DNA from: Proteromonas lacertae
Lineage: Eukaryota
Direction of reading: 5' to 3'
NCBI GenBank assembly: GCA_002245135.1
Contig: NGBS01000343.1
Location: 1-40,493 of the forward strand
Length of the DNA stretch: 40,493 nt
Position 1 is the stretch's first letter, and every line of letters starts with the position of its first letter. The notes under the pieces were generated by a model. The model was not told where the DNA came from and did no database searches. It saw only the letters and a program-made list of their open reading frames with translations. A program made the position numbers and the translations under genes. Below are positions 3,400 through 40,493 of this stretch, piece by piece.

Positions 3400-4495
3400 A
3401 TGTATATAAAATCATTACAATCATTAAGAGGTTTTTCAATTTTTATTATTATAGTATATCATTATTATAACAGAATATTTAGAGGTGGATATTTAGGTGT
3501 TACTTTGTTTTTAGAGATATCAGGAGTTGTTAATAATATAGTTGGAAAAGAATTTTGTATAATTAATTTCTATTTAAAAGAATTAATTCTATTTATCCTT
3601 CATTACTATAGTAATTGCTATATTGAATTTCATTATAAAGGATATCTCATACAATGAATTAATTAACTATTACAAAGAGTGTAAATATTCATTAATTGGT
3701 TATTTAAATTATCATTTTTATAAAAATAGTTTAGACTATTTTAATCAGTATAATTCTGCGTCTTATATTCTTAATATGTGGTATATATCCTTGCAAATGC
3801 AATTATATATATCTTCCCTCTGTTGAAGTTTTTATCAACAAGATATATTATTTTGATAATTGTTTTTAGTTATGTTATTTTTAGTTATAATAGTCTACAC
3901 AACATAAATAGATCATATTATATGATAGAATGCAGAATATATGAATTTTCTTTAGGATTTATTATAATGAATAGAAGGATAGGAATAACAAAATATAATT
4001 ATGTATTTATCTACTTTATCATTTTCTTTTTATTATGTTTATCTATTATAGTGATTATTCTTATTCATATGTTGTTATTTCAATAACTTCTGTGTTTGGA
4101 TTTGTCTTATTAGAGTTATTGATAAATAAATCATCTATATTTGATAAATCATTAGTGTTAAATTCACTTGGAAAGTATTCCTATCAGTTATATTTAATTC
4201 ATTATCCATTTATGTATATATTTCCACACAATATATTACTTAGAATTTTATGCTTGTATTTATTATCAATCTCTATACATTATACAGCACATTATATATC
4301 GAAGAGTTTTAGTATTTTAAATCTTACAATTATAATTATGATAAGTATTTATTCTTTTTATAAACTATATTCCCATAAAATTAATTTAACCATAAAAAAG
4401 AAAGCGGAATTACATTTTCTTCCACATAAAGATCCAATCTATGAATACTATAAAGTATTTAGTTTGTTTAAATTACAAAAGTCATATAAGAAAAG
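3400..4495 (+). pseudogene. Acyltransferase-3 (OafA/OatA/YrhL-like) membrane O-acyltransferase, frameshifted and 3'-truncated
   Basis: Family motifs occur in order across frames: LQSLRGFSIFIIIVYH, GGYLGVTLFLEISG, LNMWYISLQMQLYI, YYMIECRIYEFSLG, LGKYSYQLYLIHYP. The 3' end coordinate is approximate. Confidence 0.85.
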
Positions 4496-7400
4496 GAGCT
4501 GTTGATTCTCCACGTAGTTTGTTAGTATCATTTGAACCTCCATCTGTTTATAGTGGATTGCCAATATTAGGTTATAAATTGAAATACGATACAACTCCTC
4601 TTTATACAAGTGATAATACTAATACAGTCGACTATAATGATGTTAATTTCTTGTACTATGATCAAACAATAGAAATAAGTGTAAATCAGGATATGAGTAA
4701 TTTATTATATGATGCTATTGATATTAATAACAATAATGATGAAATTACATTGTGTTTATTAAAGGAACAAACATATCAATTAGTGTATGATGAATATATC
4801 TCAGATCCAATATCATTAGGAAGTGAAATTAGAGAAATGAGAAGTGTTATTGAATCAATACCAGTAATAAAAGCAGTTTCAATAACTAGAATACCATATT
4901 AGATTAGTATTGGAGAAGTTGAATTTGAAGAAAGAAGTATAAGAAGCACTAGTAGTAGCAATAATGGTGAAATCGTGTTTAATATAAGAACTCCAATTGA
5001 TATTTATATAAATGGTAGAAAGTATTGCTTATTAGGTAAGTATTATGAGAATATTACAGATTGCTATAATCAAGGATATCCAACAGAAGGAAAACAGAAT
5101 GTTCAAGTAGTACAATCTTATACATACAATATACACTTGGAGAATGTAGCAAAATATAGCACATTTGAAATACGACATAATAGTGAACCTAAATGTTCAA
5201 TTCATGTAACAAGTGAAAAATGTAATGGATGTATAATTATTAGTAATGTAATTACTGGATATGATCATTATTTAAGTCTTTCTGCATATAATGAGTTAGG
5301 AGAAAGTGAATATGTTTCAGTTAATGAACCAATCATACCATGTGAAGTATCAGGTGCTCCAGTTGATGTTAACTTTGTTATAGTAAACAGTACATCATTA
5401 GAATTGAGATGGAAAGAACCAATTTATACAGGTGGAAAACCAATATTATATTATGTAGTAGAAATATCATCAGTATCTGATTTTAAAGTGATTGAAGAAC
5501 AACATACAGTTTATCCATTACAAGGATATAGATATATATTCAGTGATTTAGCTCCAAGTACAAGTTATTATGGAAGAGTATTAGCAGCAAATGAAGTAGA
5601 ATTTGATAATAATGAACATTGGGGTTATACATTAGATTTAGTCAAAACACAAGATGTTGTACCAGAAGTAGTAAATGGAGCTTCAATCTCATTCTTAAAT
5701 CCAAACACGATAAGATTATTAATACAAGAACCATTATCAAATGGTGGAAAATCAGTAGAATCTTATGTTATACAATATGGATTATCAATTGATAATTTGA
5801 ATAACAGTTATGAATATGATGTAAGAAGTGATGATGTAGAAAGAGTTCCAAATATTGAAACACCAAGTGTAGATGAATATATTATAGATATAAGTAGTTT
5901 AGAGGAAGGAAAGACATATTATTTCAAAGTAGCAGCAAAGAATGAAATAGGTGAAAGTGAATATATAACTACAACTCCTAGTTATTTAAAACTACCAAAG
6001 ATATTAGATTATCAATATGATATTACAGTAAAATCAAAATCAGTATCAAATAGTGATATTGAAAGTTTTATAACAATATACAATCCAAATAAAAATAATG
6101 AAATTGATCATTTGAAGTTAATAATGTATGAAAGAGATCAACCATCATTTACAATTGATGAATTATACTTTGAGAATAAGAGCAGATTGGCTTTATCAGA
6201 GAGTTATACATTAACATATTATCTGAATGAAGTATATAATGTAACATTTAAATATGATACAAAACCATTTGAAATAAGAAAGATGCTATTGGAGAATATG
6301 CCAGAATTAGAAAATGTTGAAGTTGTAAAGAAATTCACATTAAATTCAATAACATTAACAATAACATATAGAACTCATTTATGTATGAGATTATTGACAG
6401 TAATACCACCAACAGATGATTCTTATATAATTAACTACAGAAGAATACAGAATGGTATTGATTCAAATGGTCAAAATGAAAGACAAGTTTTGTATGTGAA
6501 TAAATATATGAATAGTAATACATTTAGACCATACTTATTAAGAGATAATAATGAAAAGATTTACAGTTCATATATACCAATAAATAAAGATTGTAATAAA
6601 ATGATTAAAGATATTGAATGGAGTTATAACTTATTACCAAATATTGGAAGAGTGAAAGTTGTTAAAACAACACAAATGAATGATAGTTGCAAATATTTAA
6701 TAGATTTTATATCATCTTTTGATGATGTTGAAAAAGTGTATATTGAATATCATATAATAGATAATGAAGATGTTGATGGATTTACTTGTGATGGAAGATA
6801 TGATGATAATGGAGAAGAATACAAGAAAGAATGTATTGAATCATTACCAGGTACATTACCACCAGGTTATAGAGAATTTGAAATTCCTTCAACAAATGTT
6901 AATGGTTTTTATGAAATATTTAATATTATGCCAAGTCAAGTGAAGTATAATATTCATATTGTTGAGTATTATAAAGATGTTTATCCACCATCCAAATTAT
7001 CAATACCTCCAGGAATTGGTTATTATTCAACAAAGAATCCATTATCACCAGTGAATGTTACATTAACACCATCAAATAAAGAAAATGCAATAGAATTATC
7101 ATATGAAGAATCAGGTGTGAATGGAGGTTATACAGTTCAATCATATTCAATACAAATTAGTAAAGATCCCGACTTTAAGACAATTGAAACAGATTATGAT
7201 ATAAGTATTGATGATAGAATAATAGATTCAAATACAGTGATAAGATGTAGTAATTATCCACAATACTCTATTTGGTCATTACAACTGCAATCCGATAATA
7301 ATACAGATACATTTATATTAGATATAAAGACAAGCCAGTTTGAAGTAACAACAAAGCCATTATTGTTCTCAAAAGTAGTTGGAAATATAAAAGATGAAAA

Positions 7401-9377: not shown

Positions 9378-12300
9378 TTAGAAATCAGGTTGTATTAATT
9401 GACTCTCATTATGAACAATCATTTTACTCATTCTTCTTCCATCAGTTTCATCCAATGATTTTATTGAAATTGTACTACCTTCTTCTACAACAGCATCTTC
9501 AATTATATATGATTCTCTTGGAGATACTGATCTCTTCTTTATAAACGATGTAGAACCTGAACTTAACAAACTACTTAAAAATACTCCTGTTATATCAATT
9601 ACACTTCTAAATGGATCACGAATTTGATGTAAAGCTAAAACTATTATACTCTCTACAAACTCAGGATATAACATTGATAAAATAATTTCACCTTTCATTG
9701 GTAGTGTATGTTGAACTTCTAACCATATATGATTATGATCTTCTAGTTTATAACTATCATTGATTAAATGATTATCATTTCCCAATTTTTCCCAACTCTC
9801 CTTTTCTAATACTCTTATATCAATTTCTTTTTTATATGTTGAGTATTGATTCCATAAAAGTAATAGAGAATCGTGATATTTATATTGTACTTCTTTACAA
9901 TAATATTTGGGATGATGTTTATCTTGTAATGATAGAATCTGTTTTGATGTAAAAGGAATTATTGATTCTTTCATTTCTTGGGCTATTCATATAATACAAA
10001 ATATATAATAATAATAATAATAATATACAAAATAAAGTTCCAACAGATATGTTTGGTTCAATCATTTCTAATGTCTTTAAAAATATCAACAATAATTTGG
10101 TTGGTTCAATTGTATCACTATAAACATATTAATATTTATTTATTATTATATATACAATTCATGTGATTTAGTTTCTCTACAATCTTTCTTATTAATTCCA
10201 ACGTTATATAATAACAATTCAAATAGTGCAGTTTCAGATATTTTACTTATTAATCTCAAATGTTTAATAATAAACCAATATTCATTAATACATAATGAAT
10301 TATCTCTTAAAAATGAAGTAAATAGATTTAAAACTGTAAAGCTTCTCTCACATAATATTGACTTTGGTATATCCAATCCATACATTGATGCATCAAATTC
10401 ATTTAATATATCAGAAGAAAACGGATATTTTTTTGAAACTTCTATTGATTTTTTCCAACATTCTCCAAATAGACATTCACTTATTTTATTTGAATCATTC
10501 ACATTATTCTGTATTAAATCCATCATTGAAGATATATAGGGGATAGTTTGATTCAAAGCTTGAGTAGTTTCATTATGTTCTTTAGAAAGATTTTCATCTG
10601 AATATGTTGTTATTTTACTATTTATAATAATAATATTGTAATAATAACATACTCTACTTTCTGTAATTGTTTGAAATGTGACTGTACTGTTCGATATGGA
10701 GCTAATGAAGAAGGTAAATATGGTTTTGATAAAAACAATGATGATAATAAAGTATACTATTACATTATATATATATATTTACATACATTAAATGCAATAT
10801 TACTATTATTCACATCTTCCCAAACACTATCAGTATCTATTTAATAATATAATAATAATTACAATAATAAAAATAAAAATATACTCTTTTCATGAACTAA
10901 AGTTTTATTTAATAAATACTTATAACCATCAGAAGTATCTACTGATTCTGTGTGCATTAATATTGAAGCTAATAACTTTAAATAATCTCTTTCATCAGCT
11001 AATTCACTTAAATCATTCAATTCTCCTCCAGTTAAATACTTATACCAATTGCATAATAATTCATTTATATTATAAGAATCAGAATTTGGCTATTCATATA
11101 TATATATATAAATATATATACATAATTAGATGGCTTAATTGGATTTATATTACCATAATGTCTTGATAATATTGGTGTAACTGTTATTAATGCATGACGA
11201 GTATGTCTCAATGAATATAAAAAACTACCCGTTACACCATAGATTGATTTATCATCACAATAAAACTGATTTGGTCTAATATCAATCTTACTAGATACTC
11301 TTTCATATTCATAATCAATTAATTGTTTTTGTTTTAAATAATCTTCTAAGTCCTCTTTCAATTCAATCAATTTACTTTTTGTTAATTCGATATTATTAAT
11401 AGTGTCATCTTTATATTTAACTAATGCTTCATAATTGTATTGACTTGCTTTTGATTTCTTTGTGATTATAATCTCCTTCCATGCTTTAAATACTCTTAAA
11501 ATAATCTGTTTTGGATCACGAAATTGCCTTGAAAATAATATTTGTAAATGATTCTTCAGTTGTTTATTATGTTGAATTATTCCTTTCCATTCGTTGAATG
11601 CTTGTCTCATTATCTTCTTATGAGCTTGTCGAACTATTCAAAATGAAAATAAAATTGTAAATACCTTGTATATTATCACCTCCACCTTCATCTTTCAATG
11701 TATTTAAATGTTTTAAAAATAAATTTCTGCATCTATCTCTATCAGCAGCTATTAAATGATTTTCACTTTCACTTTCTCTATATCTAATCACATATGGATA
11801 ACCATCAAAATATCTTAATGGTTCATTCGTACTAGTTAAATTACCGTCATAATTAACATAGCAACTTCTACCTATTTCACATAACAGTGTGTTTAGTATA
11901 TCACTATAAGGATCCATTCTTGGCAAGAGTAATTCAAAGATAACGAATGATAGACTGAGCAAATATTTATTTGGCTCATATAAATCTTTACATAAATGAC
12001 GAGATTCCTATACTCATGATTATTATTATATGTAATTATATATATATTTATATACTTTGAAGAAAAAAGCATATTGTAAAACTAATGATTCAAAGGTCTC
12101 TTTTGGAGCTGGACAGAGTAAAGGATAGTATTTTATTAATTGATCTTGTAGTTCTAACTCTAATGCTTTTAATGAAAGTTCATCATAGATTGAACCACAA
12201 TCTTCTTTGGTTAATTTTACTATTCCTCTTATTATACTGTAAGCTATTTATATTAATAATATTATTTAATTAAAAATACGTTTAATTTGTTGTGGTATAT

Positions 12301-13629: not shown

Positions 13630-15505
13630 CTACTTTATATCTCTTTTAATAATTGGTTGAACTTCTTTATCTTTGTCTTGATTCCATAATGCTAAAGAAT
13701 CGTGTTTTGTACTAATATACTTATGAGTAAACTTATCTTTAGTCAATATACAAGCTGATGGATTTCTTTTTTCTTTTACACTAAGTTTTCTAGCAGAAGG
13801 AGAGTTAATATCATGTAAAGAAATTCTACTTTTTGAACTATTTCTTTTATTATATGCTGAACTAGAATGTCTTCTACTTCTTGATCTATGAGATGAATAT
13901 CTATCTTTATTATTATTAGCAGCACCATATTCGTCACTTCTTTCATATGACAGCATGGAATCAAAACTATTATTTACATGAAGTGGATATGATTCAATTG
14001 GAAATAAAAATGTGGTATACATTGATAATAATAGAGAAAGACTTAAATTAGAAATATATAATGGAAAATTATCTCCACAATAAATATGATTAAATGAGCA
14101 TCCAAATGTTATAATAATTGAAGCAATATATAAAGGTTGAGGTATTTTTGAATTTAATTTTGATCTAAATATATGATGAAATACCATTCTGAATAAGCAT
14201 ATTGAACTACTCAAATATATTACACATCTAATTAAATAGGGTGAATAATATAGAAATGATATAACTGGATAAAAGAATGATAAAATGAATAATAGAACAA
14301 ATGCACAAATTAATTCATACAAATTCAATTTATTCTTTTCATTGTTAGTATAATTTGAATTACAGTAAAAACCTAAAGTAACTGAAGAAATTGTACAAGG
14401 AATTAAACCTAAAAGAGAAAATAAAACCATCAATATTCCATCAACTATACAATATCTCGAAAATACTTTTAGATTAAATATAGAATCTTTGGTAGATAAT
14501 TGATGAATGTATAAACAAAACAAATTTGATAAAATATGAACAATGGAATAGACAACTATTACAAACAAGCATTTCCAATTGTAATGGAAGAATTGTGTTA
14601 TATTATTCTTGCTTCTAGATGTATAACTTAGAATTGTATTATTAACATCTAATTTGTATATATCACTTTGATAATAATTATTATCTCCATAATACTCATT
14701 AATTCCACCAATTCTATCAACAATTAAACATAATATATAGGTAACTATAACTGTTATTAATGGAGAATAATTTGTTAAAATATTATAACACGATGTTCGA
14801 CATATTACTAAAACCGTAACAATAATTAGAATCAGTATTAAATTCTTCATATTATAGTTGATAAATATATACGAAATATCTGATGCATCAATATCACTAT
14901 CTGCTATAATACTTTTATCATTAACAGATGCCGCTATTGTTGGATATACTGCATATCTTAATTCATGAAACGCTAATACAATAGCCAGACTGATCAATAT
15001 TTCCACTCTAAATAGTATTGAATGAGGTGATAAATAATATGACAAATAAAACATTATTCCAAATATTATAATAACTATACCACATACACAAATACCTAAC
15101 TTTATTTCAGAAAATATATATTCAGATGACATAATTTTGGTATTTTCACTATTTCTTATAGAATATAAAGCTGTAATACTCCTAATTAAACACACATTAG
15201 GAGCTAATATCAAATATCGAATATGTGGTAAGAAATAATTCAGAATAACAGTATATATAATAGTAGATATTATCATTACAGGAATATCTACAAAAATAAG
15301 TGGATTTGTTGGAATAAAACATGTTAGAATAACAAAAAATGTTTGTAGTATTGATAAATAACCTATATTCTATAATAAATTAAAGAATACTGTGATAATC
15401 ACTTAACCACATAGAAAATGTCTTCTTTTTATCTGATTTCTTCACTGCTGATGGATTTACTATATTCTCAATATCATCAAAGTGTAATCCTGATGCTGAT
15501 CTCAT
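13630..15505 (-). CDS. Multi-pass membrane transporter, divergent NCS2/SLC23 nucleobase-ascorbate-like
   Basis: About 12 hydrophobic segments. IVDGILMVLFSLLGLIPCTISSVTLG resembles the NAT region DGlxxxlxglfGxxPxTxys. A short first exon from ATG 15505 precedes one intron. The membrane-protein call is firmer than the family call. Confidence 0.6.
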
Positions 15506-31361: not shown

Positions 31362-31780
31362 TAATTATTGGTTTGATGTAAAAAAGAGTTTTGATACAAA
31401 AATGTGAAAAACACTATAAATTGTTTTTTAAGCTTTTCTCAATAACTGTTTAGAGTATTCAAGAATTAATTTGTCCAAATATGTACTGTGCATAGCACTA
31501 CACATTTATGCACTTAAAATCAAATAACCATTTCTAGTCGATATCCATTATTATAAGTAGAGCGTAATATAATATTATATCTATGAAGGGTGACTTATAC
31601 ATATAACATTTTAGATTTTTTTTCGAATTAAGAATTAAAAGGCAATGAAATATAAAAAATGCTATAGTATTGTTTAAGTGAATGAAACATTGTTGTTTGT
31701 TATCTTATTGACTTAAGCAAACATAATACTATTGCTTCATAGAGTTTTTTTCTCTTAACTCTTACTAATTAAGGAGATAA

Positions 31781-32067
31781 ATGACTATTTATTAATCTGT
31801 TTTCTTTAATTGTTTGCTCCATACCTATCAAATCAAATAGAAATGTAGAATATAATAACATAGATACAGTCGATAAATTTGTTGAAAATAATATAAACAA
31901 AGATATATATGTTAATGTGGATCAATATTGTGAAGACAGCTTAATTATAGCTTTCTTGAGGTACAATATAAAACTTTGTGAGAAATAAATACGAAATTAT
32001 ATCAAGTACAGTATTAAAGTATTATATAAATCAAAAATTTGAAGATGATATTTACATATATGATGAT
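31781..32067 (+). pseudogene. Decayed, signal-peptide-like host ORF apparently cut off by the viral element
   Basis: With frame corrections it reads (M)LFINLFSLIVCSIPIKSNRNVEYNNIDTVDKFVENN...YINQKFEDDIYIYDD. Composition then changes abruptly at 32068. Confidence 0.4.
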
Positions 32068-32141
32068 AGTTCTCTTGACTGAGTTTGGCAAAAGACGTCC
32101 TTTTACGTTTTGTCCTGACCTTTGTCTCATTTTTGCTACGC
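32068..32141. repeat. Candidate left terminus / start of a terminal inverted repeat
   Basis: It starts AGT..., as Polinton ends usually begin with AG. It is GC-richer than the flank and has an imperfect hairpin GGCAAAAGACGT-cctttt-ACGTTTTGTCC. The partner TIR is not in the window. Confidence 0.45.
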
Positions 32142-32835
32142 TTAAGCCTCATTTTCAGATAAGTAACCATCTACTAAGCGTTCTATAACTTGATTATAAC
32201 GTTCAACCTTACCATTCGTTTGAGGATGATAAGGCGAGCTTGTTATCTTTTTGGTATGATAATCTGCCATTAATTCATTCAATATACTGTTGACAAACTC
32301 AGGTCCGTTATCAGATTGAATAATTGATGGGGAGCCAAAAATTCGTATATAACTTTTAATATTTTCTGCTGTTTCTTTGGCACTTTTTGTCTTTTGACAA
32401 TAAATCATAATAAAACTACTATAATGATCAATAATAGATAAAAGTAATTTTTCATTTGAATGATATTTGCTCATATTTATTAAATCAATCAGTATCCTTT
32501 CTCTTGGTGCATGAGATATGATTGGTTGCATTGGATTACTACGACTAATCTTCTTAATTTTGTGACAAACAGCACATGCATTTAAATAGATTCTAATCAT
32601 GTCTCTTTTTATACCAAAATATTTTGCATCACAATTAATATATTGCATCATGAAACGCTCTCTTCTATGCCCATGAGATCTATGAATATCATCCAATATA
32701 TCAAAACTTTCTTCCAATTTCACTACCAACTTATCTTCGAAGTAGAGTTTATTATTCTCGACTTTATACTTTTTAAGTTTGTAATAATTAATGTTATTCA
32801 AATATTTGTCATACTTTTTCTGATCAAATGTCCAT
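32142..32835 (-). CDS. Retroviral-type (rve) DDE integrase with H2C2 zinc finger, Ginger/Polinton-like; C-terminus appears truncated
   Basis: IHRSHGH...CAVC zinc motif; catalytic ILIDL, QSDNGPEF and NGKVE with exact D-35-E spacing. The likely ATG at 32835 needs a 1-nt correction (MTFDQKKYDKYL). Confidence 0.93.
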
Positions 32836-32868
32836 GAGTTTGTGCCACTTAAGCATAATTTAATATAT

Positions 32869-33270
32869 GTATAACCGTAAGAATATCACTGTATATGGGT
32901 AAACCGTACCAGACTATTCTTAGGTGCCTTCTACAGGTAAGAATAAGCGATTTGAGTGTGAATTAGTTTTTGGTACGGGTTATACTGGAGCAAGTGGTGA
33001 ATTTAAAATTGTGTATATATTTTAGTGTGTGAATAAATTTATGGGTTAAAATTTATTTTTATATTTTTAATAGTTTTTAGCGTAGGATAGTAGAAATAAA
33101 GTGTATAAATAGATAGGTAGCTACCTGTTCTACCCCGGCAGGGTAGCTACTTTATAGAATAAGAAATGTATTTCTATGTAAGTAAGTAGCGTGTCCTGTG
33201 TAGCCTGACTAGGACTTAGTGATTAAATAGTGTGGTGGCCAAGCTACAGAATGCGTTCTTACTTTTTTTT
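32869..33270 (+). ncRNA. Candidate structured non-coding RNA or structured cis-element inside the viral element
   Basis: Nested stems: 32904-32911/32971-32978, 32915-32922/32938-32945, 33032-33040/33049-33057, 33091-33098/33169-33176, 33117-33125/33142-33150, 33180-33194/33251-33264 and 33199-33204/33243-33248. G-U pairs favour the + strand. Followed by T8-GG-T8. Confidence 0.55.
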
Positions 33271-33503
33271 GGTTTTTTTTCATTTATCAATTTATTTATG
33301 GATTTATATAGTGTAGTTAAAAACATTCAAAAGAATTTAAATAGTGTCAAAAATATATATTTAAAGAATTATCTACAGTATTCTATATTTTTTACTAAAT
33401 CGAAATTCTGACGAGAAACTGTTGTTATAAACAGAAAAAAGAAACAGTTTTGATTTTCCTGATATTTTAGAAAAAACCGTTTCTTATCAAAAAATATATA
33501 AAT

Positions 33504-33983
33504 ATGTGTGCTTCAGTAAACTTTGCTTTCTTTTGTTCATTTAGAAATAATGAAGATTATTTAGATAAGTGTATATGTGGAACATGTAAGTTTTACTTAT
33601 ATTTTAACCATAACATAAGTGCAGTTTTAGATAGCCCATTACCTAAGGAAGAGATAAAGTCTTATAATGAATTCTGTGCTATTTGCCATCAAAAGATGTG
33701 GACAAAGTATAGTGATAAGAGATATTACATGATGCTTTTCGATATTAAACCATCAGTAAAACCAAGAGGATTAAATAGACATTATTTTGCAGTGTTCGAT
33801 AAGTATATTGAGTGGTTAACACTACCTGAAGGAATGGGAAGTGTTCATTTGAAGAAGAATCCTATGTTGAAACATTATGTAAAGAAGAATTATATATTTG
33901 ATGATAGTGATGATGAGGAAGAAGAAGAAGTACAAGAAGAAGTTAAAGGAAATAATGATCAAACTACGATAAACATAGTCTAA
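33504..33983 (+). CDS. Viral Cys-rich, putative zinc-binding protein with an acidic tail, function unknown
   Basis: Intronless 159-aa ORF with CICGTC and CAIC and a DDSDDEEEEE tail. Confidence 0.7.
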   Translation: MCASVNFAFFCSFRNNEDYLDKCICGTCKFYLYFNHNISAVLDSPLPKEEIKSYNEFCAICHQKMWTKYSDKRYYMMLFDIKPSVKPRGLNRHYFAVFDKYIEWLTLPEGMGSVHLKKNPMLKHYVKKNYIFDDSDDEEEEEVQEEVKGNNDQTTINIV

Positions 33984-34114: not shown

Positions 34115-34996
34115 CTATAATAAAGATTGATCATTAGGGTAAACATGTCTTAAACCAAAATCTATAATCTTTGTATCAATTGTTTGAGGTAATATTGCTT
34201 GATACTGATCACCTTCACATCCATCACTTTCTAACCATAATAGAACTTTATTTTCATTAAAATGATATAAATAAAAATTACAAGATAATTTTTGAGGTGG
34301 GGTAACACTATTGTTATGAATCTCTATAGGGAATGGTACTGCATTAGATCCATCATTAGGGTATTGATTATATAAATGATCAAAAAATGAATAGAATTTA
34401 TCATCTGAACTATATTTAGGATATAAAAGAGAATCATTATCTAAACATAAACGAATTTTACGAAGTTGTCTATTACCACTAAATATTTGACATAATTTTA
34501 ATGTTTTAATTCTCATAAAATTTGGGAAGATTGTAACTGTAATAGGTATACGATCAATTATTTGTTCATTATACTTATTATTACCTAAATCTTCTTTTAA
34601 CGATACAGTCCATGTAGTATAATACTTACCTAATATAGTAGGAAATATTATATTCATAGTTTTGCAATGTTTATAGATAGAATACATAAACTTACCACTT
34701 TTGTTCTTCATAAAATCTTCATAATCATTTTGATAATAATATGTTCCAAGTGTCTCTTTACTAATATATTCATTATTTTCATTATTATATGATAATGTTG
34801 TGACTGCACTTAATGTACTAGTAATTTTATTATCACATCCACTTATTTTAATATTACATTTTTCAATTTCATCATTGATGGGTTTAACAATAGTATCAGG
34901 ATCAGTAGGTTGTATATTTATTTTGTCAGCTATATCTTTAGCAAGCTTATCTGTATCAATATTTATATCTGAAGTATTTCGTTCCCCAATAAACAT
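34115..34996 (-). CDS. Viral protein of unknown function (short coiled coil followed by a beta-rich C-terminus; possible fibre-like protein)
   Basis: Intronless ORF co-oriented just downstream of the ATPase. First true ATG is at 34996 (MFIGERN). Confidence 0.7.
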   Translation of the reverse strand: MFIGERNTSDINIDTDKLAKDIADKINIQPTDPDTIVKPINDEIEKCNIKISGCDNKITSTLSAVTTLSYNNENNEYISKETLGTYYYQNDYEDFMKNKSGKFMYSIYKHCKTMNIIFPTILGKYYTTWTVSLKEDLGNNKYNEQIIDRIPITVTIFPNFMRIKTLKLCQIFSGNRQLRKIRLCLDNDSLLYPKYSSDDKFYSFFDHLYNQYPNDGSNAVPFPIEIHNNSVTPPQKLSCNFYLYHFNENKVLLWLESDGCEGDQYQAILPQTIDTKIIDFGLRHVYPNDQSLL

Positions 34997-35040
34997 TTTT
35001 TGAATTAATAAACAATAAAATAACAAAATTAATAAAAACA

Positions 35041-35802
35041 TCAAGAAACTTCAGAATGATCTTCAATCAAAATATTAAAGTTAGCTCTAAACACTTTTTT
35101 AACATTATCAATATATAAGAAGTTATATTGTGGCTTAGTAACAGCTAAATATAACTCTTTAAATGTTTCATATTCAGGTATCCATATATTCAATGAGTTG
35201 TATAAGTCAAACAAATTTCTATTACTCAATCCATAAAATGTTAAACAATAATCTACTTGTGATCTTGCTGAAGGTACTATATCAGTAATATATTGACTAC
35301 TAATTATAATTTTTGATTTTAAATGTCTATTTTCTTTCATTAATACTGGTATGATATTAGCTGTTTTCAACTCTAAACTAAGATCATCAAATATTATAAT
35401 ATGTTCTGCATACTCAAAATTATCTTTGTTTGTATCATCAATTGATTTCATTAACTTCTCTACTAAATTATCTCCTGAATAAGGTTCAAATAATGAATCG
35501 TTTTCATCATAACTAATTTCATTATAATCTAATAACTCTTTAATTGAATCATATATCCTATCTTGTTTAATTGTGCCTACGAAAAAATGTACATGTTGTT
35601 TTTTCTTATATTTTGGATCTATAATATGTCTTAATATATTGTATATCAAAGTGGTTTTCCCACTGTTCTTACGAGCTACAATAAATATATTGCAGAAAGG
35701 CTCATTAAAGTAATCATATCCCAGAATTTTCTTAGGATCAAAAGACTCACCACCATCAACAGGTTCAATTTGTATATTATTTATTTTTTCAAATTTAAAC
35801 AT
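35041..35802 (-). CDS. A32/FtsK-HerA-family genome packaging ATPase
   Basis: Walker A IVARKNSGKTT, Walker B IIIFDD, arginine-finger ENRH and sensor IISSQY; 253 aa. Confidence 0.93.
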   Translation of the reverse strand: MFKFEKINNIQIEPVDGGESFDPKKILGYDYFNEPFCNIFIVARKNSGKTTLIYNILRHIIDPKYKKKQHVHFFVGTIKQDRIYDSIKELLDYNEISYDENDSLFEPYSGDNLVEKLMKSIDDTNKDNFEYAEHIIIFDDLSLELKTANIIPVLMKENRHLKSKIIISSQYITDIVPSARSQVDYCLTFYGLSNRNLFDLYNSLNIWIPEYETFKELYLAVTKPQYNFLYIDNVKKVFRANFNILIEDHSEVS

Positions 35803-35873: not shown

Positions 35874-37295
35874 TTATACTACTTTCTCAACACCTCTTGG
35901 TCCAATAACTAATTGTTTACCTGTAATAATATAGAATTTATGATGAATTGTATAAGTATTTTTTGCAGTATCAAAATCATGATTTGAGCAATCCAAAGTA
36001 ATTTTTAAATCACTTGCTAAGTCTTTACCAGCTCTTAATTTTAATTCAGTTAATCGATCAGTACTGAAATTTAATACATCAAAGAATCTATAAGGGAATG
36101 AATATGCTGAACATTTTTCATATAATGTATTTTGAATAATATTTCTCATATATTCCCAAGTTTGGTATTTTGCAGGATATAAATAATCAGGAGTATAGAC
36201 AAAATCATTAATTTGCCATCTAATTCTATCTTCTTCTTTATCAAAAGGAACTATAGTTCTTATATAAGCATCATTTATGTATGCTCTGTATAATATAAAC
36301 TTAACATAACTTCCAATGCTGCTATTAATACTGAAGTTATAGTTAAAAGTACTATTACCTGGAATAGGATCTTTAGTTATTTGAACTATGTTAAAATCAG
36401 TAAAGTCAATAGGATGATGAGTTGAATAATTGATGGTATTGGCATTGCAAGTTGGATCTTTGTTATAACAAACATAAAGATGAGGATTAACTATTTTCAT
36501 TCCTAAAAATGCTTGCCATTGGTTTATATATTTATCTCCATCATTATGATGAACCCAATTCATTATAGGTGCAAATGTGAATTGTATGTATATTACTTCA
36601 CCAAAATAAATATCATTCTTCAAAGCTAAAATAGTATTGTATATGTCTGCAAAATGAAATCTACACAGTATTTGACCATGTAATGTATCTGTCATACCAT
36701 TTTGCATTACATAATAATTTTGAACACCTCCACTTGGATTTAATGTATTAGCTGAATGACATAATAAATTTTCACCTATTTTTTGATTTGCAGTATTAAA
36801 TCCTAAACCATCAAATATTTTCTTGTAATAATCTGGTTCTTTTAAATCATAAGGAAATTGATTTGCAATTTCATGAGCTAAATCTCTATATTCATTATAA
36901 CTAGTATCCAAATCACATAGCAAAGTTCCTGTTTTGTTGTATACTTTTAATGTACCAAAATTCATAGTATTCTTCAATGTTAGTTTATCTAAATTATTTG
37001 CACTAGTATCTCTTTTAGGTACAAAAGGCATATCCCAATTACCTGAATCTGCAGCAGCATGAGCTCTAGTTTGACCTGTAGTATAATCTAATATGAATTC
37101 AAAATAGCTTTTTGATAAGTTAACACAATTATCACCAGATATTTCAAATGTAATAGCATCACTGTTTGAATTTAAAGATAAAACAGTCTCATTCCTGCTT
37201 TGGTTTGGAGTAACTAAAATATGGTTGTAAATTGGTATGTAAGCTGGCACAATGCTTTCATGCTTTTGTGAATTAGGTATAGCAGTGATTGACAT
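35874..37295 (-). CDS. Probable double jelly-roll major capsid protein
   Basis: 473-aa beta-rich ORF between the minor capsid gene and the ATPase. N-terminal ITFEISGDNCVNLSKSYFEF resembles the IxFxI...DLsxSYl pattern of PLV/Polinton MCPs. Confidence 0.82.
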   Translation of the reverse strand: MSITAIPNSQKHESIVPAYIPIYNHILVTPNQSRNETVLSLNSNSDAITFEISGDNCVNLSKSYFEFILDYTTGQTRAHAAADSGNWDMPFVPKRDTSANNLDKLTLKNTMNFGTLKVYNKTGTLLCDLDTSYNEYRDLAHEIANQFPYDLKEPDYYKKIFDGLGFNTANQKIGENLLCHSANTLNPSGGVQNYYVMQNGMTDTLHGQILCRFHFADIYNTILALKNDIYFGEVIYIQFTFAPIMNWVHHNDGDKYINQWQAFLGMKIVNPHLYVCYNKDPTCNANTINYSTHHPIDFTDFNIVQITKDPIPGNSTFNYNFSINSSIGSYVKFILYRAYINDAYIRTIVPFDKEEDRIRWQINDFVYTPDYLYPAKYQTWEYMRNIIQNTLYEKCSAYSFPYRFFDVLNFSTDRLTELKLRAGKDLASDLKITLDCSNHDFDTAKNTYTIHHKFYIITGKQLVIGPRGVEKVV

Positions 37296-37348: not shown

Positions 37349-38321
37349 TTAATACAAAATAATCTCAAAATAAATAGGTAAGTTTTTTAAATAAATTGCA
37401 TAACCATCTTGTTGTGTGACTGATATAGTCATTCGTTGATATTCGTGATATTGCATCTTCTTAGCTGTCCATTCAATTTGTGGATTAGTGAATGTGGTGT
37501 AGTTAGTATTAAGATCTTTCACAGGTATGTTAGCTAAAACCATTGAATTCTCACCACTATTAACCCAGTCACATCTAATTTGTATGAATGACACCCAAAT
37601 TAAAGACGGTTGATTAGGCAATATTTTGTCATATTCTATATCAATATTATTAAAAAATGCTTCAATTGGAGCTGCTGTATGATAAATATCTAACTTTTTG
37701 TTCATCTCATCTACACCATATAACTTATAAACTAAGTTAGGGAATTCAATGCTAAAATCTGTGAAATATAATCTACCAAAATGAGTTAAGTATTTGAATT
37801 TTAAGTGTAATCTATTTTCTGAACTTTCACTAAATTGAAGTATATCTGTTTGATCATCTATTTTACGAAACGGATAGTTTTGTGAAAGATCTTCATCTGG
37901 CAATGGTCCTGCTGCACCTGCCTATTTCTGCAAAACTTAACGATAGTAACTTATTACTAAAAAATTCTAATAATTCTTTACCAGTATAATTTCTTTGAGG
38001 TATTTTAGCATCAATAGTTTTATAATAAGGTCCAAGCTGATTCTCAGGTTTTTCCCATTCTGCTGGATTTGTTTTATCTGGATTTATGCATTCGTAGTAA
38101 GTGAAATTAAAGAGAATATGATCATTTACTTCATCTTGTACTGTATAGAAGTTATTTGGAATAACTGCAGTAATTAAACTCATATATTGATATTTTTCAG
38201 TAATAGTTGGAGTATTAATACATCTAACCCATTTATTAGATAATTTTTCATTATAGTCTGATGTTGTTAAGAACAATGTTCTTCTATTAGCTAATATGTT
38301 GTTACTATCTTTTGGTTGCAT
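37349..38321 (-). CDS. Probable minor capsid (penton, single jelly-roll) protein split by one frameshift near 37920
   Basis: SLITAVIPNNFYTV...IPQRNYTGKEL in the N-half and FIQIRCDWV...VLANIPV...ISVTQQDG...PIYFEIILY in the C-half. Removing one base fuses the two ORFs into ~323 aa. Confidence 0.8.
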
Positions 38322-38400: not shown

Positions 38401-40493
38401 ATGCAACCGCAACCTCAAGTTAACAATTCAAATGATGATGAAGAAGATGGACCCACAGATGATGATGAATATGAAGATGAAGAAAATGAAGACAATGTAC
38501 CTATTGATATGAGGCAGAATAAGACATAGAAGAAGACATAGAAGGAATCAAGTCATACCATTTCAAAATATAAGTGAAGATGATTTAAATAATTATGTGG
38601 ATCAAGAAGTGAAAAGATTTAACAAAGCATTAATTATTCAATATAGACTTATTCCAATAGGTTGGCCAAATCATGAGTTTAATAGAATATATAATTTATA
38701 TGATGAACATATGAAAATGTTTAATTGGTGTAAAAATTTATTTGTAACAGGTCCTTTTGCACATGGTAAACCATTAGAAGCTTATAATCCAAAATTAACA
38801 GGAAATGAAAACTCTGCTAATGCAAGAGAATGTGGCATATTTAAAACTCGTATAGCAGATGGTATTGATAAATTGTGTATGGCATCTGATTTTATATTAC
38901 AAAGAAATCCATTTGTTGTTTTACACCCAAAAGAGAGAATAGGTGTTACACAACTAGAAAATAGAAGAATTAAAAAAACTCATTATGAAATTGATGAAAG
39001 ACATCCAGAACCAGAAAATGATTTTAACATAATGAATAATGAACATTATAATAGTGCAGCTGAAATAAGAGCAGAAAATGTTATGCAAAATAGACATGAT
39101 AATATGGTAAGAGGAGTATTAGTAAATGCAGACAATGGAAGTAATGATAATAACAATAATAACAACAATGGAAATAATAGCAATGATAATAATGTAAATA
39201 ATAACAACAATGCAAATTATGATATAATTAGCTTTTGTGATTCTCTGAAAGATAAGTTAAAGTTTTATATAGGTCGTTTAATGAGAACTAAATTTTGGTA
39301 TTTAACAAATCAAAAAGAAGAAACAGCTTATTCAATTGCGTTAATCATATACAACTGTGTAACTGATTTGTATATATTAGCTTTATATTACATACCAATA
39401 TTAAAAGATAAGTTAAGTGGAGATTATCAAAATGATAATGAATATACTTTACCATATCATCCTGATAGAAGAAATTTTATGGGATTACCAGATGGTGATA
39501 ATAGAACTGGATATAGATATAACTATTTAGCAACTATACAAAAAATATTATCAGAAGCTCATGTACCACAAGGACAAATCAATACAAATATATTTGCTAA
39601 TCCTATAACTTTTAGAATGAATAGAGCTTTAGATACACAACTTAACCGTCAAATTAAACATAGAAGATCAGTTCCAGCTTATGTTGGAATGAATGTTGCA
39701 GATCATAGAAATTGGAGATATGTTGCACCAGCATAATTATCCTCCTGCTCATCCATCAATTACTGCAGATTTGAATTGATAGAAATGTCAATGCATTTTA
39801 TAATGCATCACCTGCAAATAGTGATAGTGAAGATAATGATAATAATCCATCAAGTAGTGATACTGAAGAAGATTCAGACACTTATGATCTTGGTGATATG
39901 AGTAATCAAATACCACTCCTCCTTTACCACCAAGACCTATACCAGCAAGAACTATTCAACAACCACCTCCACCTCCTCCTGTATCAAATGTATCTAGATC
40001 TAATGTAATTAGTTTAAATAATCAATTTAATCCTCATCATCTTATACCATCTGATAGATTTTCATTTTTAGTATCAGATGATTTGCTTAATGCTATACCA
40101 AATCCAAATAGAGACTTTAATAAATCACATAGATTTTTAGCTACTAGAGAAAATGGAGCAAAAATAGGTGTAACTAAGATAATACAAGAGTTTTATACAC
40201 AATTATTAACAAATAATGGTAAAATCTATTCAATTGATGCATTTATACATAATCATAATCCACCTTGTACAATTGTAGATGAAAATTCAAATAAGAGTTA
40301 TATGTTCTTTACTGATTGGGTTAGAGAAGAAAACATCAATTTACCTTTATTACCTAGATCTACATATAATGCAACTGAAGTAAATGATATACCTCAAAAT
40401 TACAGTAGTATCAATATGATGTTTTATGGATATGATTACAATAGAAATATATATTCATATACTGGTTTATTAGAATATTGGTTAAAGAATCAT
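38401..40493 (+). CDS. Large viral protein of unknown function, interrupted by several frameshifts/stops and running off the window
   Basis: ATG 38401 (MQPQPQVNNSNDDEED), ORF 38597-39736, an acidic/Pro-rich linker, then a stop-free frame from ~39960 to the end (PPPPPVSNVSR...LEYWLKNH). It could instead be two genes. Confidence 0.6.

Follow-up and report, generated by a model that had tools for sequence, protein, structure and literature searches.

A GC-rich hairpin cluster at the probable left edge of an integrated Polinton-like virus in Proteromonas lacertae: a candidate terminal segment

The 40,493 nucleotides of Proteromonas lacertae DNA analysed here (contig NGBS01000343.1 of assembly GCA_002245135.1, forward strand; hereafter the window) end in an integrated Polinton-like virus (PLV), to the left of whose genes lies a cluster of hairpins that is real but moderate, not extreme. 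We propose, tentatively and as the best of several explanations, that this segment of about 400 bp is the left terminal segment of the virus, a candidate terminal inverted repeat (TIR), the hairpins and palindromes of which would be DNA signals rather than one RNA. The segment codes for no protein, is rich in GC, forms pairs to a similar extent on either strand and is followed by intron-less viral genes. A left virus end is likely because a transposase reading frame breaks off at 32861, seven bases short of the first hairpin.

Results

The viral block

Up to about position 31400, the window consists of host DNA with fragmented, intron-type frames. This DNA is 25% GC, close to the content of some Blastocystis, which PMC12129017 puts at 21-23%. 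Part of this host DNA, 1-2120, is repeated at 9489-11614 (about 2.1 kb, 94-100% identical, spacing of 9.49 kb, with frame differences), possibly a recent duplication or an assembly artefact. An intron-less block of genes occupies the DNA to the right of about 31400. Its first viral gene, on the + strand, is a Cys-rich ORF of 159 aa (33504..33983), whose three relatives, 38-42% identical, start at about the same place; two CxxC-like pairs are invariant among the four sequences. The protein gave no Pfam, atlas or fold match (model pLDDT 60; atlas scores 0.80), and on these results its candidacy as a known RNA binder was rejected. The next four genes are on the − strand. A 308-aa ORF (34115..35041) belongs to a family without assignment. 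The A32-like packaging ATPase (35041..35802; Pfam Pox_A32, E 6.4e-5, 23 bits for a cut-off of 22.8) has 107 relatives, the closest at 92% identity. The double jelly-roll major capsid protein (MCP; 35874..37295, model pLDDT 54.9) has seven relatives at 38-77% identity, and its top Foldseek match is the MCP of mavirus (E 4.1e-10), with which it shares 11% identity. A likely minor capsid gene (37349..38321), assigned on the grounds that it precedes the MCP, an arrangement shared with the distant PLV locus L039, is split between two frames that are interrupted near 37900-37930. Between 37349 and 40493 the viral reading frames are broken in several places, namely in the minor capsid gene and in frames at about 38401-38700 and 39740-39950, through either sequencing error or decay.

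Two PLV hallmarks, the double jelly-roll MCP and the A32-like ATPase, are thus present in the window, and the block is an integrated PLV of a protist. No replication gene was found within the window, nor was a pPolB or a protease seen there; an open intron-less frame crosses the right edge at 40493, where the viral segment leaves the window. The close relatives of the ATPase (up to 92%), MCP and Cys-rich protein are known as proteins only, in Logan. Queries with the capsid, the Cys-rich protein and the close ATPases found no relative in the IMG/VR, JGI and GTDB collections.

Three hairpin domains and a T-rich end

A first-pass annotation of the DNA had described a structured RNA of about 400 nt in this region, composed of three paired domains. 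All 15 of the motifs it quoted were found in place, within 32869-33280, and the helices are real. Domain 1 (D1, 32869..33003) contains perfect helices at 32869-76/32978-85, 32904-11/32971-78 and 32915-22/32938-45. The first of these, 8 bp long, had been overlooked, and the last has a second partner for its arm at 32878-85; the pair formerly taken to close the domain (32884-90/32993-99) contains two G.T. An AT-rich spacer of 84 nt follows (33004..33087, 18% GC), with a 9-bp helix made entirely of A and T (33032-40/33049-57) and T5 runs at 33056, 33064 and 33074. Domain 2 (D2, 33088..33178) consists of a helix, 33091-98/33169-76, around 33117-25/33142-50. Its inner arms are two direct copies, at 33117 and 33143, of the palindrome GTAGCTAC, also overlooked before; the first copy sits in a 12-bp palindrome (33115-33126), and half-sites occur nearby at 33186, 33200 and 33243. 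Domain 3 (D3, 33180..33264) is an imperfect inverted repeat (33180-33211/33236-33264) with two small bulges, and its mismatches comprise 4 G.T, 3 A.C and no transversion. Directly after D3, T8-GG-T8 is present on the + strand at 33263..33280, as had been reported, and accounts for two of the six runs of at least 8 T in the window. By eye, a possible pseudoknot was seen in D3, with 33193-98/33210-15 crossing 33199-204/33243-48.

GC content sets the domains apart, as the earlier description of GC-enriched patches had it: 38.5% for D1, 34% for D2 and 43% for D3, compared to 9-20% in the remainder of this gap and in four further intergenic stretches of the virus. Between 33115 and 33264 (150 nt), GC reaches 42%, a level matched by only one other region of the window. 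In the gap between 32955 and 33347, the motif AGTGT occurs six times on the + strand (32955, 33024, 33100, 33229, 33310 and 33343) and never on the − strand; it is a possible candidate for a promoter or binding motif.

Pairing compared to shuffled sequences

Perfect Watson-Crick helices of at least 7 bp number 11 in the region, against 4.1±2.1 in block shuffles, none of 300 of which reached 11. Taken together, the three domains, whose boundaries were chosen after seeing them, have a z of −3.16 on the + strand (1/300) and of −4.18 on the − strand (0/300). Of 403 windows of 100 nt, those at 33101 and 32901 come lowest in + strand energy. The folding excess over shuffles foreseen in the first-pass annotation therefore holds for the domains taken jointly and for the helix count, and is only moderate for the whole 402 nt (z −1.56 on +, 9/100 shuffles being as good; −2.91 on −, 2/100). 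The global fold of the region does not retain the three domains, and with DNA parameters these are weak (z −0.65 to −2.46). As for the count of GC-containing helices, 13 of 201 windows of equal length match it. No inverted repeat in the window scores higher than D3 (36.4, reached by 0/150 local shuffles), but D3 does not exceed the maxima of whole-window nulls (26.6-36.6 and 34.8-40.8 in two null sets). Helix count, GC content and joint z together bear out a non-random cluster of GC-rich helices beside a virus.

No strand preference beyond composition

The imperfect positions, said to be repeatedly G-T on the + strand, had been read as selection on a + strand RNA. This argument fails, since the split between G.T and A.C is the one that composition predicts. 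With 90 G and 45 C on the + strand, G-T is expected over A-C at 71 to 29, and the ends of 26 helices gave 14 G.T and 5 A.C, or 74% G.T. Shuffled sequences favoured the + strand more than the real one did in 127 (D1), 63 (D2), 168 (D3) and 157 (D2 and D3 together) of 200 cases. In D3, G-U pairs add more to the − strand than they do in shuffles (−7.5 vs −2.3±1.9 kcal/mol). The sole result in favour of the earlier reading is D1, with 9 G.T vs 1 A.C (p of about 0.1 at D1 composition, by hand calculation). The only directional cue is the T8GGT8 run.

A transposase fragment abuts the hairpins

To the left of the hairpins lies an internal fragment of an rve integrase/transposase, Ginger2/KRBA2-like and cut at both ends (32148..32861, − strand; Pfam rve, E 8.8e-13). 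A search with this frame returned a single cluster at E 1e-10 or better, including a 408-residue member, P0160. The fragment corresponds to residues 16-253 of P0160, with 232 of 238 residues identical (97%), and identity then breaks off sharply: 1/15 residues before the fragment and 0/15 after it. The missing N-terminal codons of the transposase are nowhere else in the window, and the apparent ATG at 32856 is a Leu-Cys codon pair of the conserved frame, not a start. Because the integrase frame has lost its start and is a fragment cut at both ends, the gap does not lie between two divergent genes, contrary to what had been assumed, and the idea of a guide or leader for the integrase loses its basis. 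A structured 5′ leader or a frameshift for the integrase was rejected because the ATG at 32856 stems from the Leu-Cys codons; an insertion into the integrase with a 5′ exon nearby was also rejected, as the exon was not found in the window. The − strand is ATG-free for 427 nt, the second-longest such gap among 874 (P 0.069, dinucleotide shuffles).

P0160 carries an N-terminal HHCC (H2C2) zinc finger before its DDE core (HRSHGH at 75, CAVC at 111), a finger that PMC2836005 attributes to Ginger2 transposases and denies to Polinton integrases. The integrase of L039 is devoid of it. The flanking fragment resembles the Ginger2/Tdd transposases and KRBA2 (PMC2836005, PMC3575427) in its finger and core; it differs in being internal only, with the transposon ends absent from it. 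The atlas ranks KRBA2-like clusters first and second and a cluster of viral proteins (Preplasmiviricota) third, all at 0.93, and the L039 integrase occupies the corresponding position of its gene order, following a plain gap of 350 nt that is AT-rich. Because of this third cluster and of the L039 gene order, the integrase could be the virus's own, with an internal break. From the sequence comparisons we infer that the fragment is a piece of a host transposon abutting the left end of the virus, and hence non-viral. Beyond its 3′ break, 32040-32147 is GC-richer (about 40%), possibly the end of another element.

Transposase homology ends at 32861 and D1 begins at 32869. The junction between them (32862..32868) shows an ATATA filler, then TGT at 32868, which we take as the candidate left virus terminus. 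The five bases of non-transposase filler count against this reading.

Inverted repeats of distant relatives

A broad alignment of the ATPase gathered at least 81 distant loci at 28-38% identity (best 80 of 128). Among the matches listed, the hairpin region had no blastn or nhmmer match in these loci. Single-sequence covariance models of D3 and D1, run on the distant loci, matched nothing but the window at E up to 1. The D1 pattern was found 0 times in IMG/VR and the D3 pattern 0 times in GTDB; the 27 matches of the D2 pattern are about what chance would give by estimate. The best of these pattern matches under the D3 model (L090, 21.6 bits) has a generic stem with a U run behind it, and its letters do not match. 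Phage and plasmid blastn with the region gave only E values above 0.4.

Among the matches listed, 9 of 38 distant loci of at least 4 kb (two of them identical) contain non-coding inverted repeats between genes that surpass the nulls of the same locus. These repeats are internal; of 20 loci of at least 8 kb, none showed terminal repeats. The PLV relatives L027, L039, L026, L055 and L071, with related ATPases, are like the window in having non-coding inverted repeats. Their repeats differ from the window's by near-perfect long arms, by often being several per genome, by their internal position and by having no sequence or model match to it; the window hairpins are much weaker than these foldback repeats (L027 reaches z −12.4 as RNA). 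In several distant relatives the inverted repeats are built of short direct repeats. L039 has four related intergenic ones (3929-4036, 4101-4236, 7056-7155 and 14378-14517), with arms formed by a doubled 9-mer. They are candidate origin or protein-binding elements, and one of them is found immediately beyond the end of a Prim-Pol/D5 primase-helicase gene. L027 carries two 410-bp foldback copies, 97% identical, with arms of about 110 bp (5387-5796 and 10279-10688), which is a MITE-like element within a PLV. More intergenic inverted repeats were found in L026 (8134-8273), L055 (6516-6635), L071 (2307-2441), L068 (1427-1566), L080 (1856-1994), L061 (11313-11447) and L066/L069, several of them with arms made up of 7-9-mers repeated in tandem two or three times. 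The intergenic inverted repeats of distant PLVs may constitute a family-wide class of cis-elements.

Discussion

Hairpins that begin seven bases from the transposase break, the probable start of the virus, are likelier to be DNA signals than a 400-base RNA, and the DNA reading is also the simplest one for strand-symmetric hairpins and a doubled 8-bp dyad at a virus end. The arms of D2 are DNA dyads and D3 mixes G.T and A.C, both of which count in its favour. The segment lies at a boundary between viral and presumably non-viral DNA, starting seven bases after the break in the 97%-identical transposase. In the preprint 10.64898/2026.07.28.741278, palindromes within TIRs, beside the target-site duplication, are described for several virophage subtypes and one PLV subtype, and hairpin priming is proposed as their predicted role. 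The Halocafeteria seosinensis endogenous virophages and PLVs of that preprint likewise carry palindromic non-coding DNA from the element edge; there, however, the TIR pair is proven, has a target-site duplication and is flanked by a palindrome of 52 nt, whereas the hairpins here are three, imperfect and spread over 400 bp, with the partner end beyond the window. The TIRs of mavirus-like EMALEs measure 0.2-2.3 kb according to PMC8547959, a range into which our segment fits, and EMALEs are likewise double jelly-roll viruses integrated in a protist genome, with mavirus providing the best structural match of the capsid. Differences are the low MCP identity (11%), the fact that no pPolB or protease is seen in the window, and the candidate status of the TIR. 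Passages on PLV gene content in PMC10120064 and 10.64898/2026.06.19.733378 make no mention of hairpins.

The virus would have entered the genome at or near a Ginger2-like transposon, in which case the remainder of the transposon and an inverted copy of the segment are expected beyond 40493. By analogy with known elements, the arms could fold back on either strand upon excision of the virus or unwinding of its end, and so form priming or recognition structures, and the doubled GTAGCTAC with its half-sites may bind a putative dimeric end-binding or replication protein. The window holds no inverted partner of the segment, which counts against a TIR, the other end lying outside; the right junction, and any target-site duplication with it, is also outside. 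Membership in a TIR had been named beforehand as fatal to the RNA proposal: the position at the virus edge, now the leading reading, goes that way, while the partner repeat that would complete it is absent from the window. The DNA role leaves the T8GGT8 run and some A/B-like boxes unaccounted for.

These two features bear on an RNA reading that is possible, though we hold it unlikely: D2 and D3 would give rise to a Pol III transcript of about 185 nt from the + strand (about 33080-33270), a VA RNA-like dsRNA decoy against host RNA sensing or silencing. Adenovirus VA RNA and Epstein-Barr EBER are about 160-190 nt long, have a terminal stem followed by a U run, and contain internal A and B boxes. 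D2 and D3 fit this outline, are a GC-rich non-coding patch in an AT-rich genome, and would be compatible with such an RNA also if they lie at the virus end. A scan with A/B-box consensus patterns found weak Pol III-like boxes on the + strand at 33078..33136, A-like at 33078/33083/33088 (1 mismatch) and B-like at 33126-33136 (2 mismatches). No T run precedes T8GGT8 in D2 and D3, and this run begins on the last pairs of D3; the unit is the only one of 21 box units in the window (both strands) whose first T run comes after the B box and has at least 7 T, by criteria set after seeing this very case, and 6/21 units have a run of at least 5 there. Unlike those of VA RNA and EBER, however, the boxes are degenerate, such pairs occurring 15 times per strand. 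Moreover, 33078-33270 folds at a z of only −1.26 on + (22/200), there is no G-U excess on +, and no Rfam family was found at threshold: the Rfam 15 covariance models gave 0 matches at the gathering threshold in the window, the best in the region scoring 21.4 and 17.4 bits for thresholds of 90 and 43. A pistol ribozyme and a U5 snRNA, considered because of their motifs, were rejected, as neither is among the Rfam matches at E up to 10, and so was a tRNA, with no Rfam or ARAGORN match. In the literature searched (titles and starts of abstracts), no report of Pol III or structured RNAs of virophages or PLVs was found. We regard with yet more doubt the wider proposal that the PLV itself encodes a small Pol III transcript in its terminal region, about 185 nt long and drawn from D2 and D3 with the T8GGT8 end, perhaps with D1 as a second unit ended by the T runs of the spacer. 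The single three-domain + strand RNA of about 400 nt that was first proposed is very unlikely. Three adjacent structured patches that end in T8GGT8, and the 9 G.T to 1 A.C of D1, speak for it. T5-type runs terminate Pol III transcription, and a product of this length would read through four of them, at 32967, 33056, 33064 and 33074, three interrupting the 84-nt spacer at 18% GC; if the first T run of at least 5 ends a unit, D2 and D3 qualify and the 400-nt version does not. The lack of strand asymmetry vs shuffles and the loss of the three domains in the global fold also stand against it.

The segment might instead be non-viral, a subterminal part of the Ginger2-like element, a small host element or a host RNA gene, brought up to the transposase core by a deletion, with a virus that starts only at 33280-33500. 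Such a deletion is possible, as the break removed the start of the transposase, and A-TATA-TGT at 32863-32870 resembles a Ginger2 target and terminus (RTATAY and TGTNR in PMC2836005); the two 410-bp MITE-like copies of L027 show that relatives carry foldback repeats. But TGTAT departs from TGTNR in its fifth letter, and 13 occurrences of the motif were counted in the window. The segment is present there in a single copy, with no bracketing pair of terminal repeats, and we find this origin improbable. More improbable still is that the pairing arose by chance in a promoter region of locally raised GC, no structure being under selection. The whole-region z of only −1.56 on +, the 13 of 201 windows that equal the helix count and a D3 within the whole-window null maxima speak for chance, but the 11 perfect helices (4.1±2.1 expected, 0/300), the joint z of −3.2 (+) and −4.2 (−) and a GC content two to four times that of the other viral gaps speak against it.

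If the small-RNA reading were true, VA-like Pol III RNAs would extend from adenoviruses to protist viruses and would give a direct handle on how PLVs meet host RNA defences; were D1 a second unit as well, this would be a VA-RNA-like pair in relatives of adenoviruses, of which there is no report in the titles and abstract openings searched. On the leading reading, that of a left terminal segment, the hairpin cluster would be one more palindrome-rich end of an integrated PLV. It would serve as a boundary marker for a virus lineage that is apparently undescribed, and as a test case for hairpin priming, the model put forward for those PLVs that lack a protein-primed polymerase.
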